64,000 nt of DNA from a virus (taxonomy: Duplodnaviria > Caudoviricetes): positions 96,001-160,000 of the IMG/VR virus record IMGVR_UViG_3300037067_005074. One strand, given 5' to 3'. The notes under the pieces were generated by a model, which ran no database searches, had not been told where the DNA came from, and worked only from the letters and a program-made list of their open reading frames with translations. Shown one piece after another: positions 2,838 through 44,917 of this stretch. The stretch's first letter is position 1, and each line of letters opens with the position of its first letter. Made by a program: the position numbers and the translations under genes.

Positions 2838-3112
2838 ATTTAGAATTAAAAGATGACATTAAAACAATTCTGATTAAAAAGTTTATAAAATATTCAAATA
2901 ATTATTTATCAGATATAGATTTTGAAATTGAATATATTAATGAAGAAAATATAATTAATTCGATTGAAGTTAAGATTAGTTCAAATGAAGGATATGATAA
3001 AGAAATTATAATTATATCACATTTAGATTTAATTGTTTTTCTGTTTATGAATCATAAATCACTTTCAAATTGTTGGAGTGAATCACTTAAATTATTTCAA
3101 TATAAAAGTTAA
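2825..3112 (+). CDS. Hypothetical protein
   Basis: ORF track, operon context. Confidence 0.55.
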   Translation: MGIMNLELKDDIKTILIKKFIKYSNNYLSDIDFEIEYINEENIINSIEVKISSNEGYDKEIIIISHLDLIVFLFMNHKSLSNCWSESLKLFQYKS

Positions 3113-3191
3113 AAATTGGTTATGACTTATTCTAAGTTTCTAAATAAGCGAAAATAGACTTATGGTTGAGAGGCCAGACTTATACCAATTT
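3113..3191 (+). ncRNA. Candidate small structured RNA or regulatory element
   Basis: Closing stem AAATTGGT/ACCAATTT, inner hairpins including TGGTT-GAGA-GGCCA, GACTTAT three times; followed by a terminator. Confidence 0.35.
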
Positions 3192-3248: not shown

Positions 3249-3280
3249 TTTGTTTATTAATTTTATTTTATTTATTTTTG
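3249..3280 (+). promoter_or_regulatory. Bacteroidota-type sigma70 promoter
   Basis: TTTG-N20-TATTTTTG, then TAGAGTAAAA as in the copies at 26528 and 63675. Confidence 0.8.
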
Positions 3281-27623: not shown

Positions 27624-30600
27624 ATGAAATTAGAATTACATATTTATGATATAAATGACAATTTAATAACAAGTAATTATAATTTGTCTGATTGGAGATA
27701 TTCTGATGATGGTTCTCAATTAATATATAATATTCACAATGAAATTAGAAGATTAGGATTTAAATCCGGAAAATTAAAACATACATTATTATTTTATGAT
27801 TTAATTGTAGGTTCGACAACAAGAAAACAATTATATATATCGGAAATATCAAAAGATAGAACTGAATTAAGAATTGTTTGTAATGTTAAAGATAGTACAA
27901 CTGCATCAGATTTTGAAGTATTTAAGCAATTTGATAAAATTCAAACAATTTTTAATATTAATAGATTAGATAAAAAAGTAAATTCCATTAATTTTGGTAA
28001 TAATGTTATTATTGATATAAATAATTGGATTCAAGATAAAGTAACAGTTAAAACTTATCCATATAGTTTAATAATAAAATTAGATTCTCCATTACCAAAT
28101 AATATTACAATTGATACAAATATTTTATTTTTAACAAGATTATATGATTCTATTTCTTATTCATTTCAATTAATACCATCAAATGAAGAATTTAATGTTA
28201 ATGTATTATCAAATCCAAATTTTGGAATAAAAATAAATAATACAACTGGATTAGAAACTTCTTATCAATCTTGGAATGATTTGTTAAGTGCTGATGTATC
28301 AGTAAAAAACTTATTAATAAATCAATTTTTTAATTTTTATGAAAATTCTGCAAAATTAAATATTGATTATACTGATTATATAAACTTTGTTTTTTATTCT
28401 AATGCTGAAATAAGATTATATAATTTTAAATACAAATTAAAGCAAATTCAAATATTAGAAGCTAAATCATCTATTGTTGGAATTCAAACATTTCAAGATA
28501 AATATTTAATTGAAATAGAAGATATAAAAAATAATTTTGATGGATATGATTATTTTCTTTATTATGGATTAGATACAACTTATTCATGGCCTAAAGATGT
28601 TAATAATATACCATTAAATGTAAATGATAGTATTGCTATTGCTTGGTATGATAATCAAATTTTAAATGCTATTTCGTTTGATAAAAGTAATATTTATGCA
28701 CTAAGTAAGAAAATACCAAGTGGAATATCTGATGATGAATTTAATAATCAATTTATGTTATTTATAAATATGATTGCTCAACATTTTGATATTCTTTGGT
28801 TATATACTTCTAATATTGATATGTTAAGAGATAGAGATGAATCTTTAACAGAAGGTATGAGTAAAGATTTAATTTATCATGTTCTTAGTAATTTTGGATG
28901 GCAACCTCAACATGATAATCAATTTGATGATTTATGGCAATATATATTAGGTAATGTAACAGATGATTCTGGTGTCAACATTACTATTATAAAAGCAACA
29001 ACAGATAAAGTTGCAAGAGAAGACATTACTAAAGAAATATGGAAAAGAATATTAAATAATTTACCATATATTTGGAAAACAAAAGGAACAGAAGAAGGAT
29101 TAAGGTCGTTAATTAATATTTATGGAATTCCAAGAACAGAATTACATATTAGAGAATATGGTGGACCAAATAAATTAGATGTTAAATCTCAATTATTTGT
29201 AGATAAATTTAATTATTGCATTAAATTAGAAACAGGTAATAAAATAATTGTACCATATCTTTCACCCGGAACAATTGAATTTCGATTTAAATTATTAAGT
29301 AAAGCAAATCAAACTGTATTTGTTAGAGAGGATAATAATATTTCACTTAATTTCATCTATACAACTAATAATAATGGAAGAATACAATATTCAGTAAATA
29401 GTGGTTCTTTTATATATCAATCAGATGAATTTCCAATATATAATGAAAAATGGTGGTCATTTATGTTTAGAAATGAAATTGTGTCTGGTAGTCAAACTTT
29501 TGATATATTTGTAAAACATGCTGATTATAATAAAATAACTTTTGGATATTCTGGTTCATTTATTGTTACTGGTAGTAATGATATTACTGAAATATTTAAT
29601 GAAGATTATGATTATTTTATTACATTAAATGGAAGATTACAAGAATTTAGATATTGGAATATACCTTTATCCGAAGCAAGTTTTAATAATCATACATTAG
29701 CACCAAGTGCTTATAACGGAAATAGTGAATCATCATCATATTATAATTTAATGTATAGATTAACACTTGGTACTGATACTAATCAATATAATCATTATAA
29801 TACATTAAGTTTAAATAGTCAGCATCCTTCTATTGGAATGTTAAGTGGTGATTGTTTAATAGATGGAGGAACTGCTGCATCTGTTTCTGTTGATATTGCA
29901 GATTGTAATTCTGCATTATTTACTTCGAGTTTTGAATATTATGATGGGGGAAATGCTTATTCTATTTATTGTAATGATGTTGTTTCTGCAAGTTTTGTTG
30001 GTTTTTCAAATGAATTTAATTATGAATTAGTAAAAGAACAATATACATATGAATGGCCTGATTTAAGTGCTAATAGAAGTATAAGTAATAAAATTAGAAT
30101 TGAAAATAATGTATTAGAATCAAATTTAAGTATAAGTAATAGAGCAGAAAAATCTGCTTTTGATTTATATCCTATTGATAATTCTAAAATAGGAGTATAT
30201 TTAAGTACAACCAATGAAGTAGATGAAGACATTGCAGAACATATGAGTTCAGTTAATATTGATGATTTTATTGGTAAAATTAACAGTGAATTCAGAAGTG
30301 AATATCCAGATTTAAGAAGACTGAAAGATTATTATTATAAACAATATATTGAAATGTATAATGTTAAAGATTATTTTCAATTAGTTAAATATTTCAGTAA
30401 TAGTTTATTTAAACATATAGATGAATTAACTCCAGCAAGAAGTAATAAAATAACAGGATTAGTTATTGAACCGCATATTCTTAATAGAAGTAAAAATATA
30501 TTAATTAAAAATAAACCAACTATTACTAATATTGACAATAATTGTTCTATAAATATTACAGATGAAATATATTTAAATGAAAGTAATTTTACTTCATTAG

Positions 30601-31052
30601 AAAGTTTATTAGATTTAAATATTAATAGTATAATTGGTGGAGAAACTTATGATTTAAGTGCAACAATAGATTATAAACACGATTCATCTATGTATAGTTG
30701 GCAAAATATGATGTTTGATGCAACTGGTAGTGCAGTATTTGTAAATAATCCTTATTGGGAACGAGAAGGAGTTGTAACATTATTAGAAACTTATAGAAAA
30801 TCAGAAAGACTTAAAATTATTAATCCTTTAAGAACTCTACCAAGTCAAAGTTATTATATTCCAGCAGAAGTACAAGATTATAATTCAATTGGAATGAAAA
30901 ATAGTTATTATAAAGGGTCTAAATTAATTGGTTCTGCAATTAATCAAAATAGTAGTCAAACTCCTGATGGTGGTCCTGTTTTACAAAGTTGGATAAATGA
31001 AGATATAAATTTAAAATCAAATAAAATAAATCAATTACGCAATTATAAATAA
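27624..31052 (+). CDS. Large virion structural protein (baseplate/tail-like, LamG-like middle)
   Basis: RILNNLPYIWKTKGT..G..LINIYGI, TIEFRFK, G.LQEFRYW, LVIEPHILNR. Confidence 0.7.
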   Translation: MKLELHIYDINDNLITSNYNLSDWRYSDDGSQLIYNIHNEIRRLGFKSGKLKHTLLFYDLIVGSTTRKQLYISEISKDRTELRIVCNVKDSTTASDFEVFKQFDKIQTIFNINRLDKKVNSINFGNNVIIDINNWIQDKVTVKTYPYSLIIKLDSPLPNNITIDTNILFLTRLYDSISYSFQLIPSNEEFNVNVLSNPNFGIKINNTTGLETSYQSWNDLLSADVSVKNLLINQFFNFYENSAKLNIDYTDYINFVFYSNAEIRLYNFKYKLKQIQILEAKSSIVGIQTFQDKYLIEIEDIKNNFDGYDYFLYYGLDTTYSWPKDVNNIPLNVNDSIAIAWYDNQILNAISFDKSNIYALSKKIPSGISDDEFNNQFMLFINMIAQHFDILWLYTSNIDMLRDRDESLTEGMSKDLIYHVLSNFGWQPQHDNQFDDLWQYILGNVTDDSGVNITIIKATTDKVAREDITKEIWKRILNNLPYIWKTKGTEEGLRSLINIYGIPRTELHIREYGGPNKLDVKSQLFVDKFNYCIKLETGNKIIVPYLSPGTIEFRFKLLSKANQTVFVREDNNISLNFIYTTNNNGRIQYSVNSGSFIYQSDEFPIYNEKWWSFMFRNEIVSGSQTFDIFVKHADYNKITFGYSGSFIVTGSNDITEIFNEDYDYFITLNGRLQEFRYWNIPLSEASFNNHTLAPSAYNGNSESSSYYNLMYRLTLGTDTNQYNHYNTLSLNSQHPSIGMLSGDCLIDGGTAASVSVDIADCNSALFTSSFEYYDGGNAYSIYCNDVVSASFVGFSNEFNYELVKEQYTYEWPDLSANRSISNKIRIENNVLESNLSISNRAEKSAFDLYPIDNSKIGVYLSTTNEVDEDIAEHMSSVNIDDFIGKINSEFRSEYPDLRRLKDYYYKQYIEMYNVKDYFQLVKYFSNSLFKHIDELTPARSNKITGLVIEPHILNRSKNILIKNKPTITNIDNNCSINITDEIYLNESNFTSLESLLDLNINSIIGGETYDLSATIDYKHDSSMYSWQNMMFDATGSAVFVNNPYWEREGVVTLLETYRKSERLKIINPLRTLPSQSYYIPAEVQDYNSIGMKNSYYKGSKLIGSAINQNSSQTPDGGPVLQSWINEDINLKSNKINQLRNYK

Positions 31053-41628: not shown

Positions 41629-41659
41629 TTTGTTTATATTAAAATTAATATTATATTTG
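41629..41659 (+). promoter_or_regulatory. Bacteroidota-type promoter at the head of the cassette region
   Basis: TTTG-N19-TATATTTG. Confidence 0.75.
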
Positions 41660-42130
41660 TAAAAAATTAAAAACAATTATTATGACAATACGAGAAATTA
41701 TAAAAGCATATTGTGAATTAAAATTAACCAATAATATACAAGATGATGTGTTAGATTTTTTAAAAATTCGGCAATTGAATTAACAGAAAAAAATCAAATG
41801 ATTGAAAGATTTTATAAAACTTACTCTGATAGACAAAATGAAATAAGTAATCAAATAAATAAAACAGATAGTATCGAAGAACGAGGGAGTATTTTATTGA
41901 AAAAAATAAAATTGCTGAAATATTAGCTCTACTTAATACTATTCGTTAATTTTTTATTAAGTATAACGAAAAATAACAGTCGCATGTTGCAGGATTTCAA
42001 GAGGAAGAATTTATATTTGAAAATAAAACATATAAAATACAAATAGACGCATTTTGGGAAAAAGTAAGATATTTTGACATTTCGGTTAATGGAATAAATT
42101 ATAATAGAAGTGAATCTTATGAATTTTAAT

Positions 42131-42161
42131 TTTGTTTATTAAATAAAAAATATTATATTTG
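42131..42161 (+). promoter_or_regulatory. Bacteroidota-type promoter
   Basis: TTTG-N19-TATATTTG. Confidence 0.75.
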
Positions 42162-42285
42162 TAGAAATTTTAAAACTGAAAATATGAAAGAAGCTCATTT
42201 ATACTTAATAAGCAAGGGAGTTAAAACAAAATGTCAAATATTTACAGCAAGTGCTGTTGAACAAATGCTGAATGAATTTGCCTAA

Positions 42286-42468
42286 ATGCAGTTAAAAAAT
42301 AATCATATTAAATCTTATGTTATAGTGAGTAATGAATTAAAAATAGGAGACAAAATAAAGTTTCCCTCGGGGTTAAAAGCTGAAATAATATCAATAGAAG
42401 TAAAAGTATATCAGATGTTGAAATTTAATTTAAAACATTATTATTTTATAACAAAAAATAATAATTGA
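42286..42468 (+). CDS. Small cassette-type ORF
   Basis: Reads through a GTTATAG core at 42319. Confidence 0.45.
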   Translation: MQLKNNHIKSYVIVSNELKIGDKIKFPSGLKAEIISIEVKVYQMLKFNLKHYYFITKNNN

Positions 42469-42843
42469 AATACCGGAAATCAGTATGTAATCAGTAAAAA
42501 GTTTTTTAACAGATAAAAAGTACATATAAGCAATGTTTAACTATAATAATATATGTTTTTATCAAAATTTATTAATCAAATGGAAATAAAATCTTTTAAT
42601 TTAAATCATTCAATAGAATGTGAAAGAAGTGAAGTAAAGCAAGAAGACGCAGATAATAGTAAATTATATAATGAAGTTTTAGTATCTCTTTTTTCTTAAA
42701 TATTAAATATTTGTAAGGAAAATAATATAAAACGCAGAACTTAAATAGAATGATATAAACATGACAATTAGTATAAACTTTATTTTGAAATACGAATAAA
42801 ATGTTTTATATTTGTTACTATGTTTTAGTAAAAAATTAATATT

Positions 42844-43179
42844 ATGAAAAGACATAAAAAAATAATAATGAATGATGTTGAGATAGATGAAGGTATATCA
42901 GATTTAATTCAAATACTTTGGAATAATAATATTGAAACAATACAGTGTTGTGAAGGTGGTTATATAACAGATAAAGAAACAAGATTTACACATTTGAATG
43001 ATGGTTATATTGTAGATAATGCTCATATTATTTTTTTATATAAAGATTTGGATAAAATCAAAACTTTTTTACCTAACAATACTGATTATATCATAGGCGA
43101 TAAGACACAAAAAGGACACTTAGCGGAATGGTTAGGAAGTTTTGATGGTGTATGGGCAAATTTTAAGCACAACACTTAA
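42844..43179 (+). CDS. Cassette ORF, hypothetical
   Basis: EIDEGISDLIQILW...ETIQCCEG; bracketed by ~20-bp inverted ends. Confidence 0.75.
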   Translation: MKRHKKIIMNDVEIDEGISDLIQILWNNNIETIQCCEGGYITDKETRFTHLNDGYIVDNAHIIFLYKDLDKIKTFLPNNTDYIIGDKTQKGHLAEWLGSFDGVWANFKHNT

Positions 43180-43191
43180 TTTTTTATTAAA

Positions 43192-43319
43192 CATAACGGT
43201 TGCAGGTATGTTTAGTGCTTGATTTAGAAGTATAAACAATCAAAATACAAATAAGGATGAAAAAAACAGAAAACTCAAAACAAGCAGAAACACAGGTATT
43301 AAATATACCTGTTATTATG
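43192..43319 (+). repeat. attC-like hairpin A
   Basis: CATAAC-GG-TTG-CAGGTATGTTTAGTGC ... GTATTAAATATACCTG-TT-ATTATG. Confidence 0.75.
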
Positions 43320-43451
43320 CCAAGTATTGTTAGGAAGGGTTTCGTTCAATGTATGGATGGAATGACTTCTTTGATTAATACCCAAAGTGATGAAATGATT
43401 AAAGTTAATTTTAAAGATAGAGAAACCCAATTGAAATATTTAATTAAATGA
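43257..43451 (+). CDS. Small ORF starting inside hairpin A
   Basis: N-terminus (..QVLNIPVIMPS) is encoded by the hairpin loop and right arm. Confidence 0.55.
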   Translation: MKKTENSKQAETQVLNIPVIMPSIVRKGFVQCMDGMTSLINTQSDEMIKVNFKDRETQLKYLIK

Positions 43452-43732
43452 GAAAAAGTGATATAGTATTATTAGCTTTAATTATATCAGGGAATATTGA
43501 TATTGATGTTATTAGTATAGAATACAAATTAAAATATTATATTCTAAAATACAAAGTTTCAGATGAAATATATAGTTTTACAATAAGTAGAGCTAATGGA
43601 AGCATAAATTTTAATCTTTATAATGAAACGCTTGAAAAAAATATAATTCAATTTGGGCATGAAAAAGCTATTGATTTTATAAAAGAAAAATATGATATAA
43701 AAAATATTATTAAAATTGGATTTATTGATTAA
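43448..43732 (+). CDS. Cassette ORF, hypothetical
   Basis: Stop lies directly before CCATAAC of hairpin B. Confidence 0.65.
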   Translation: MRKSDIVLLALIISGNIDIDVISIEYKLKYYILKYKVSDEIYSFTISRANGSINFNLYNETLEKNIIQFGHEKAIDFIKEKYDIKNIIKIGFID

Positions 43733-43734
43733 CC

Positions 43735-43853
43735 ATAACGGTTGCAAATATAAAACGTTTATTAAACTAAACCTAAATTGAAAAACACAACATAAATAAA
43801 AACACAACAATAAATTTGAAACACTGAAATAAATGTTTTATATTTGTTGTTAT
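43735..43853 (+). repeat. attC-like hairpin B with embedded promoter
   Basis: ATAAC-GG-TTG-CAAATATAAAACGTTTATT ... AATAAATGTTTTATATTTG-TT-GTTAT. Confidence 0.8.
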
Positions 43854-43953
43854 AAAATAGTAAACGACTAATTTAACATTTACTCCGATGTAATTGCAAG
43901 ATGGTAATTACATTCACAAAAGGAAATAAGTATGAACACTGGTCGTTTATTTT

Positions 43954-44011
43954 TTATAACTATTATATATAAAAATCAACAGTTAAATAATTGAATATAT
44001 AATAGTTATAA
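43954..44011 (+). repeat. Terminal short TAAC...GTTA hairpin D
   Basis: TTATAACTATTATATAT/ATATATAATAGTTATAA, 17-bp perfect stem. Confidence 0.75.
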
Positions 44012-44053: not shown

Positions 44054-44917
44054 ATGATAAAAACAATTGGATTAAATGAATCTGAAATTACGAAATTATT
44101 AGATTCGTGTTATAAATTTAAACCTGAAGATTTAATTATTTCAGAGTTAAAATGGAAGACAATAATTTACACTATTTTAACAGGAGGAAATCTTTTAATT
44201 ACAGGAGAATCTGGAAGTGGTAAAACAAAAACAATTTTATCTCTTTTAAATCTATTAGATAGAAAGTTATTTAATATTCCTCTTGGTGCATCTCAAGACC
44301 CGATTTCATCTATTATTGGAAATACTCATTTCAATTCTACAGATGGAACATTCTTTAATAAATCTTATTTTGTTAATAGTATTCAAGAAGAAAATGCTAT
44401 TATATTATTAGATGAAATTACAAGACCAAATAAAGAAGTTTGGAATGTTTTAATGAGTGTATTAGATGAAGAACAAAGATTTTTAAGAGTAGATGATGAT
44501 ATTAATACTCCTGAAATTAAAGTTGGAAATGGTGTTTGTTTTCTTGCTACTGCTAATATTGGAAAAGCATATACTTCTACTAAAATATTGGATAAAGCAT
44601 TTAAAGAACGTTTCACAGTTATTGAAATGGATTTACTTAATAAGGAACAAGAAACAAAACTTCAAATGCAATTATATCCTGAATTAGATTTTAAAATTAT
44701 TAATGATATATGTTCACTTGCTTGTCTTACAAGAGAAGAAAATGATGATATTGAAATTAGTAGAAAAATAAGTACAAAAGATGTTAAAAGATTTCTACAT
44801 AAAATCAAATTTAATTTTACTTTTGTAGAAGCATTTCAAATAGAAATTCTGAGTAAGTATGATAATTCAGAAGAAATAAACTTTTTAAAACAATTACTCG
44901 ATTCTTATAATTATTAA
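44054..44917 (+). CDS. MoxR/CbbQ-like AAA+ ATPase
   Basis: GESGSGKT, LLDEITR, ATANIG, LDKAFKERF. Confidence 0.9.
   Translation: MIKTIGLNESEITKLLDSCYKFKPEDLIISELKWKTIIYTILTGGNLLITGESGSGKTKTILSLLNLLDRKLFNIPLGASQDPISSIIGNTHFNSTDGTFFNKSYFVNSIQEENAIILLDEITRPNKEVWNVLMSVLDEEQRFLRVDDDINTPEIKVGNGVCFLATANIGKAYTSTKILDKAFKERFTVIEMDLLNKEQETKLQMQLYPELDFKIINDICSLACLTREENDDIEISRKISTKDVKRFLHKIKFNFTFVEAFQIEILSKYDNSEEINFLKQLLDSYNY

Follow-up and report, generated by a model that had tools for sequence, protein, structure and literature searches.

What kind of element is formed by the hairpins and small genes at 41.6–44.0 kb of the window, the 64,000-nucleotide stretch analyzed here, which comprises bases 96001–160000 of a 173.7-kb IMG/VR phage contig (IMGVR_UViG_3300037067_005074; estimated completeness 72%, about 21% G+C)? 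The region lies at a switch from minus- to plus-strand genes and contains small plus-strand open reading frames (ORFs) and hairpins with TAAC and GTTA cores, which an earlier note on this DNA had interpreted as an array of integron-like mobile cassettes swapped at G|TTA. This integron-like interpretation is largely right, with corrections concerning the crossover side and the nature of one hairpin (D): the window probably holds a short array, decayed in part and without a recombinase gene, that belongs to an integron-like cassette system common in phages with Bacteroidota-type promoters. Because the region is 78% A+T and contains 148 inverted-repeat pairs (repeat search), folding energies, or the window considered alone, are weak evidence, and the argument rests on comparative data.

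Two attC-like hairpins on the plus strand form the core of the array: hairpin A (43193–43318), of the ~120-nt class, and hairpin B (43735–43853), 417 nt apart. R1, a covariance model of the hairpin family that includes both A and B among its training rows, matches A with 99 bits (E = 2e-18) and B with 62 bits (E = 1e-10) at the locations claimed for them, and these are its only strong matches in the whole record. A and B share the architecture ATAACGG-TTG-stem...stem-TT-(G/A)TTAT with unrelated stem sequences, as had been described. B has intact cores (ATAACGG...TGTTAT), whereas the 3′ core of A reads ATTA(T) at the aligned position, at which GTTA is present in 31 of 32 family members; the earlier note is corrected in this respect. 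When folded with DNA energy parameters and compared with shuffled sequences, only the top strand of B adopts the described structure (z = -1.7, against 0.0 for the bottom strand). ORF stops indeed lie close to the TAAC boxes, 14 and 3 nt ahead of them.

The hairpins belong to a family that is conserved in structure across many phages. In blastn comparison with phage records only A found matches, to Cellulophaga phages phi13:2 and phi19:3 (80% identity over 149 nt, flanks unrelated). A 17-mer from the left arm of A is present in 21 IMG/VR stretches, and the whole A module, from TAACG to GTTA, is present at about 80–90% identity in 11 distinct contigs and in the IMG/VR copies of phi13:2 and phi19:3, with both flanks differing. 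A TAACG[G/T] comes after almost all small genes of these contigs, with a partner GTTA mostly 118–125 nt downstream; smaller element classes span ~85 and ~45 nt. The ~20 nt inside each core pair mutually, and their sequence differs from copy to copy (50 elements in 14 sequences). The family consensus consists of [A/C]TAACG, a 3-nt bulge (3–4 nt among the members), a stem of ~20 bp, a loop, the return stem and TGTTA. R1 has 66 matches in 14 phage loci and another 205 in 78 further loci, so that the further copies for which the earlier note had proposed a covariance-model scan are found in many other phages, and none beyond A and B in this genome. In an alignment of 32 elements, 89.4% of the cells are paired (66% in shuffles), both sides change in 18 of the 20 stem pairs, and the covariation score is 0.53, compared with 0.09–0.13 for slid partners. 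The TAAC and GTTA cores of this alignment are invariant, the sole exception being the ATTA of A in the window. The claim that structure rather than sequence is conserved is thus borne out. The stems contain 168 G.T wobbles and 8 A.C mismatches, which identifies the sense (top) strand as the folding strand, and mean stem duplex energies are -30.4 kcal/mol for the top and -22.2 kcal/mol for the bottom strand; both results uphold the top-strand preference claimed earlier.

The DNA between hairpins has ends that pair with each other. In 31 units, the 20–24 nt after GTTA (X) pair with the 20 nt (X′) that precede the following TAAC, with mean duplex energies of -18.4 kcal/mol for adjacent ends and -7.2 kcal/mol for non-adjacent controls; these are the self-complementary cassette ends that the earlier note reported for the window. 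In the window itself, 42814–42840 pairs with 43174–43197 (-14.7 kcal/mol) and 43849–43872 pairs with 43937–43960 (-20.4 kcal/mol), and both duplexes are more stable than any of 3000 pairs picked at random in this AT-rich window (best, -14.3 kcal/mol). The first pair delimits a plus-strand cassette body (42814–43197, ends GTTACTATGTTTTAGTAAAAAATTAA ... TTAATTTTTTATTAAACATAAC) that contains the plus-strand ORF 42844–43179 (111 amino acids; PHROG match phrog_6638), and the second delimits an ORF-less plus-strand unit of 112 nt (43849–43960, ends GTTATAAAATAGTAAACGAC ... GTCGTTTATTTTTTATAAC; fold z = -2.8). The segment from A to B has no such pairing (-3.8 kcal/mol), in agreement with the earlier note.

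A co-occurring recombinase, predicted by the earlier note, exists in relatives. In two array-bearing phages (G002 and G007), a tyrosine recombinase gene of 268 or 270 codons immediately follows the last cassette in the same orientation, and the two proteins are 65% identical. This ~268-amino-acid protein has PF13495 and PF00589 domains, matches NF040815 (the XerA/integron-integrase model) with 197 bits against a cut-off of 220, and matches the TIGR02249 integron integrase with 156 bits in two stretches against a cut-off of 265. A profile of 27 homologs has archaeal XerA (4a8e, 174 bits) as its best match in the PDB, followed by Vibrio cholerae IntI4 (2a3v, 129 bits in two stretches), and detects relatives in at least 505 viral contigs. 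Linkage to the arrays is directional: in the R1 scan of 78 recombinase loci, 204 of the 205 matches are on the recombinase strand, and 199 lie upstream and six downstream of the gene, despite more downstream DNA having been searched. Of the 39 loci in which 7 kb or more of upstream DNA is available, 29 contain arrays (mean, 4.5 matches per locus), and the last hairpin ends 74–1422 nt from the recombinase gene. This Xer-like protein is a strong candidate for the enzyme of the arrays.

A different tyrosine recombinase of ~418–428 amino acids, with PF13102 and a weak PF00589 match, is encoded just downstream of the arrays of phi13:2 (contig L029, 790–2076) and phi19:3 (contig L002, 4006–5262). 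Its membership in the 268-amino-acid family was rejected (BLASTP E = 0.19), and it is perhaps an ordinary integrase.

Relatives carry a conserved site, TAACTAnnATATRT (commonest form, TAACTATTATATATAA), after the last cassette and 40–100 nt before the ATG of the recombinase gene; it closes the arrays beside that gene as a putative attI-type site. In the whole window record this motif occurs at hairpin D only, one copy per strand (TAACTATTATATAT at 43957–43970 on the plus strand, inverted at 43995–44008 on the minus strand), which indicates that D is the array-terminal site. D had been described as a shorter TAAC...GTTA hairpin that closes the array; it is indeed a perfect palindrome (43954–44011; 17 bp, z = -5.9 against shuffles), and it is not of the same kind as A and B, carrying the terminal motif instead. 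The two inverted copies of the motif in D are 24 nt apart, and other arrays have a single copy. The usual downstream recombinase gene is absent at D, and the next gene encodes an AAA_5 ATPase (44054–44917). By eye, the 40 nt after the D motif loosely resemble the usual recombinase leader, with ATA at the position of the start codon. On contig L015 the terminal site closes two more arrays, one of which ends in a truncated second copy: over 89 nt (2402–2490), the terminal site and the 16 initial codons of the recombinase gene recur at 94% identity, beyond which similarity ends, and the intact copy lies 42 kb away on the same contig.

Shared blocks in related arrays are bounded by TAAC. A 371-nt block, consisting of A and the next gene, is located at different array positions in phi13:2 and phi19:3 and extends from AACG to the next TAACGG; contigs L014 and L018 have a common block that extends from TAACG to the next TAACG. 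In 80 further loci, the 5′ ends of 8 of 33 blocks fall within 2 nt of TAAC and four 3′ ends fall at TAAC+3 to +9, and no end falls at GTTA. The moving unit is thus a hairpin plus the downstream ORF, and the TAA|C side of the folding strand is the more probable place of crossover. Of the proposal that mobile cassettes are swapped at G|TTA, the integron-like cassettes stand and the exchange point probably does not, the block breaks lying at TAAC and never at GTTA.

In the mechanism that we propose, each unit would be an attC-like site followed by an ORF, with a unit body of the form GTTA-X ... X′-TAAC in which X pairs with X′. In an excised circle, X′-TAAC and GTTA-X would extend the base helix of the hairpin, which would be the integron principle with a far longer R-box helix. 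It is the sense (top) strand that folds, and the ~268-amino-acid recombinase of the Xer/IntI clade, which in relatives is encoded one cassette beyond the last hairpin and behind the terminal site, would recombine folded hairpins, either among themselves or with the terminal site, probably by cutting on the TAA|C side. Expression signals are present in the hairpins as well: host sigma-A promoters in the 3′ arms of B and of a decayed hairpin C, and a start codon with a leader peptide in A. In the window phage, the terminal site alone would have survived, as D, and the 72%-complete record has no recombinase gene left. The lack of a recombinase, the mutated core of A and the lack of further copies in this genome suggest that the array is a relic or is served in trans. 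It looks worn, with 42.7–44.0 kb partly decayed and wreckage extending back to 41.6 kb.

Several observations weigh against this interpretation. No recombination product has been seen, neither a circle nor an empty site, and no event has been observed directly. The absence of an integrase noted earlier for the window extends to the whole record, which contains neither a tyrosine recombinase (no PF00589 match) nor a remnant of one (no match to the recombinase profile A3), and G001, a complete phage of 56.7 kb in which there are at least four hairpins, also has no recombinase. The window has only two intact sites, one with a mutated core, and the long-range stem of A is not its minimum-energy DNA fold (z = -1.4). 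The only family member that has been tested experimentally, P12002L_attC1 of Polaribacter phage P12002L, yielded no recombinants with IntI1 (PMC9892861). Finally, the strand that folds is also that of the mRNA, so the G.U bias is just as compatible with a function in RNA.

The last point leads to the first of the alternatives, in which the hairpins act in early mRNA as RNase III-type processing or stability sites, or by presenting start codons, and cassette shuffling is a by-product. Every translation start and every ORF would then be flanked by long stems of the sense strand. Long stems between the early genes of phage T7 are a precedent for mRNA processing sites. An RNA role would account for the wobble bias toward the coding strand and for two nearly invariant G.U positions in the 32-element alignment. 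The wobbles are one-sided in addition, with 155 pairs that have G in the 5′ arm and T in the 3′ arm and 13 of the opposite arrangement, for which strand choice alone is no explanation. About half of the elements have a start codon in the loop, ~62 nt after TAACG; in A it is the ATG at 43257, followed by a 20-codon leader (MKKTENSKQAETQVLNIPVI). The A-type hairpin has three length variants, all of which preserve the reading frame, and this observation, the loop start codons and the hairpins of the recombinase-less phage G001 all suit an mRNA role. The conserved terminal site, which is not a hairpin, is left unexplained by such a role, as are the strict linkage to an upstream array on the strand of the tyrosine recombinase and the block boundaries exactly at TAAC. 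The X/X′ stem would melt under translating ribosomes, and no Rfam family, including Flavo-1, matches the window or six array loci at gathering score (at an E-value threshold, the flagged region gives only noise, with E up to 5). An mRNA role as the primary explanation is unlikely, although a serious competitor, and it could coexist with a role in recombination.

The A-type leader, MKKxxN...QALNIPVV, is encoded by the loop and 3′ arm and is fused in frame to unrelated ORF bodies in 13 phages; examples are the window at 43257–43319, contig L001 at 3074–3135 and contigs L009, L013, L014, L015, L017, L018, L021 and L025. The short-class (~45-nt) elements of unrelated phages have an identical loop, TCGTTTTAATG, and differing stems (contig L007, minus strand, near 1044–1093; L040, which is phage P12002L, minus strand, 29990–30060 and 30920–30970; L083; and L107). 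With default filters R1 finds no match in P12002L, where intergenic reading shows short-class members, so R1 under-detects the ~45-nt class there.

A second alternative is that the hairpins are regulatory modules, comprising a promoter and a leader, that shuffle genes by homologous recombination between phages without a dedicated recombinase, like the promoter early stem-loops (PeSLs) of T4-type phages. PeSLs are the nearest phage analog: they are intergenic stem-loop/promoter modules at the junctions of shuffled small early genes in hyperplastic regions of phage genomes, and differ in being conserved in sequence, in moving by homologous recombination and in having no covarying stems (PMC2839356; PMC4122927). 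A-type modules are 75–93% identical over 13 otherwise unrelated phage contigs, with homology that stops at the module borders, as this explanation would predict. Promoters are found inside B and inside C, which also agrees with a PeSL-like role. However, most hairpins are alike in structure and not in sequence, so that there is no homology for recombination between most of them; moreover, PeSLs have no cassette-specific end pairing, invariant AAC/GTT cores or linked tyrosine recombinase. PeSLs are sequence-conserved, terminator-like stem-loops with an early promoter behind them and are repeated in a genome, whereas A and B have only the cores in common and no further copies are present in the record. 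An origin of these arrays in PeSL-like shuffling is accordingly very unlikely. Chance inverted repeats, which the 148 pairs in the region and the modest DNA-fold z-scores of A and B might suggest, can be dismissed in view of the R1 E-values, the homologs in many phages, the end pairs that beat every control and the covariation data.

The preferred interpretation, an integron-like cassette array, invites comparison with integrons themselves. Integrons comprise the IntI integrase, an attI site and attC-bounded cassettes, and the most similar to the phage arrays are sedentary chromosomal arrays with attC sites of ~120 nt. Both integrons and the phage arrays are series of small ORFs split by imperfect palindromes that are conserved in structure, with 5′ ..AAC and 3′ GTT.. 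cores, a bulge near the base helix, a bias in the folding strand and a cassette start that pairs with its own site. In both, a conserved non-palindromic site, which in the phages is a putative counterpart of attI, lies beside the gene for a recombinase of the Xer/IntI clade, and arrays without an integrase occur, as in the window. The phage arrays differ in that the ~268-amino-acid recombinase is without the IntI-specific insertion and aligns to IntI4 in two pieces, and in that the folding strand is the coding strand, so that, with respect to the geometry of site and recombinase, the orientation of the ORFs is reversed. Read on the opposite strand, the array would match the classical layout, with a diverging recombinase gene, an adjoining terminal site and a folding “bottom” strand with AAC in the 5′ arm. 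The end pairing of 14–22 bp, compared with ~7 bp in integrons, is a real departure from classical attC sites, as had been proposed. Some of the phage sites carry promoters or a start codon, and the hosts of the arrays are phages.

By the usual definitions, the sites of the window have the cores of attC (R″ ending in AAC, R′ starting with GTT), intact in B and deviating in A, and the family has the expected conservation of structure rather than sequence, unpaired bases and strand preference (the covarying pairs, the bulge and the wobble bias). A complete integron would have IntI with its additional domain beside the array, which is found neither in the window record nor in relatives, and promoterless cassettes with the ORF followed by attC and transcribed from a common promoter (Pc). 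Here the ORF comes after the hairpin in each shared unit and is oriented toward the recombinase gene, and B and C have promoters of their own. Operationally, the R1 sites A and B form a cluster of attC sites lacking integron-integrase (CALIN), which is defined by at least two nearby attC sites and no integrase.

Very few integrons were found in Bacteroidetes in the IntegronFinder 2.0 survey, and CALINs have been predicted in 17 phages, including virulent ones (Qi et al., 2023; Front Microbiol, PMC9892861). Among the predictions is P12002L_attC1, which was obtained with HattCI alone and assigned to an integrase-less array (PMC9892861), and which is a short-class member of the present family (TAACGG-CTA-stem-TCGTTTTAATG-stem-AT-TGTTAGG). 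The family, the end pairing, the terminal site and the Xer-like recombinase are not described there (Qi et al., 2023; PMC9892861), and no published description of this phage cassette system was found in the literature, in which one member is known, as a predicted attC.

Xer enzymes (XerC/D and archaeal XerA) act on one duplex site, dif, at which they resolve chromosome dimers. XerA is the best sequence- and structure-database match of the linked recombinase (NF040815, 197 bits; 4a8e, 174 bits). Unlike the Xer enzymes, the linked gene is located at the end of multi-hairpin phage arrays, and its NF040815 score is below the 220-bit cut-off.

Taken further, the arrays may represent a distinct, phage-borne class of integron with a small Xer-like recombinase, sense-strand hairpins, docking at TAACTAnnATATRT and sites that double as expression modules, a tentative proposal that we put forward with reserve. 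Should it be correct, captured ORF fragments would be expressed at once via a site-borne promoter or via a start codon with a 20-codon leader, and the window would preserve one such platform as a fossil. Integrons are viewed as platforms for gene capture in bacteria that need IntI, and here the same architecture occurs in phages with another enzyme of the Xer/IntI clade and an inverted gene orientation. If active, the system would explain the exchange of small early or accessory genes among these phages, and would offer an independent second system in which to test how folded strands recombine. The window instance, which is recombinase-less and decaying in a very AT-rich large phage, suggests that arrays can outlive their enzyme.

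The left part of the array, all on the plus strand, is decayed. It is headed by the host-type promoter P1 (41629–41659; TTTG-N19-TATATTTG), which was identified in a genome-wide promoter scan, as were the others described here, and is followed by short broken ORFs from 41682 to 42700 (33, 42, 33, 60 and 48 amino acids; ORF list). A remnant cassette end plus core (TTAATTTTTTATTAAGTATAACG, 41946–41968) is a direct repeat, 91% identical to the X′-TAACG stretch that precedes A; no intact hairpin follows it, and an R1 match at 41973–42089 is weak (13.6 bits, E = 1.7). A second host-type promoter, P2, is located at 42131–42161. Hairpin C (42712–42818) is a decayed B-like hairpin with the left arm TAAGG..AATATAAAAC and the right arm AAATGTTTTATATTTGTTAC. 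The right arm contains the intact promoter P3 (42784–42814), terminates in GTTA at 42814–42817 and is 77% identical over 47 nt to the right arm of B (direct-repeat search); the arm duplex reaches only -9.7 kcal/mol, and C is undetected by R1. The ORFs between A and B are 43257–43451 (64 amino acids) and 43448–43732 (94 amino acids), on the plus strand. Together with A, the first of them is 88.7% identical over 248 nt to contig L015 (766–1013). The 3′ arm of B is a perfect host-type promoter (43815–43846; TTTG-N20-TATATTTG), and the 112-nt unit just downstream of it contains an inner 10-bp hairpin (TGTAATTGC...GTAATTACA) and ends in a T-run. This unit may be a cassette that is empty, or it may encode a small RNA.

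No near relatives of the window phage were found in IMG/VR via the neighboring AAA_5 ATPase gene, so the cassette order of this phage itself cannot be compared, and a single-protein search of genome contigs returned only two unrelated matches in metagenome-assembled genomes, both without hairpins. A scan for tRNA and tmRNA genes found none. Group I and II introns, a retron, translational bypass and a CRISPR-like array were considered and dropped, no feature in the region supporting them.

The promoters of the array are of a type used throughout the record. Four perfect Bacteroidota-type sigma-A promoters (TTTG-N19/20-TATATTTG) are located in the region, at 41629, 42131, 42784 and 43815, and about 28 near-identical host-type promoters (TTTGTTTAT...N...TATATTTGTAGAGTAAAA) are distributed across the record on both strands, 25–40 nt before start codons, further examples in the window being located at 3249, 6354, 55795, 59123 and 63675.

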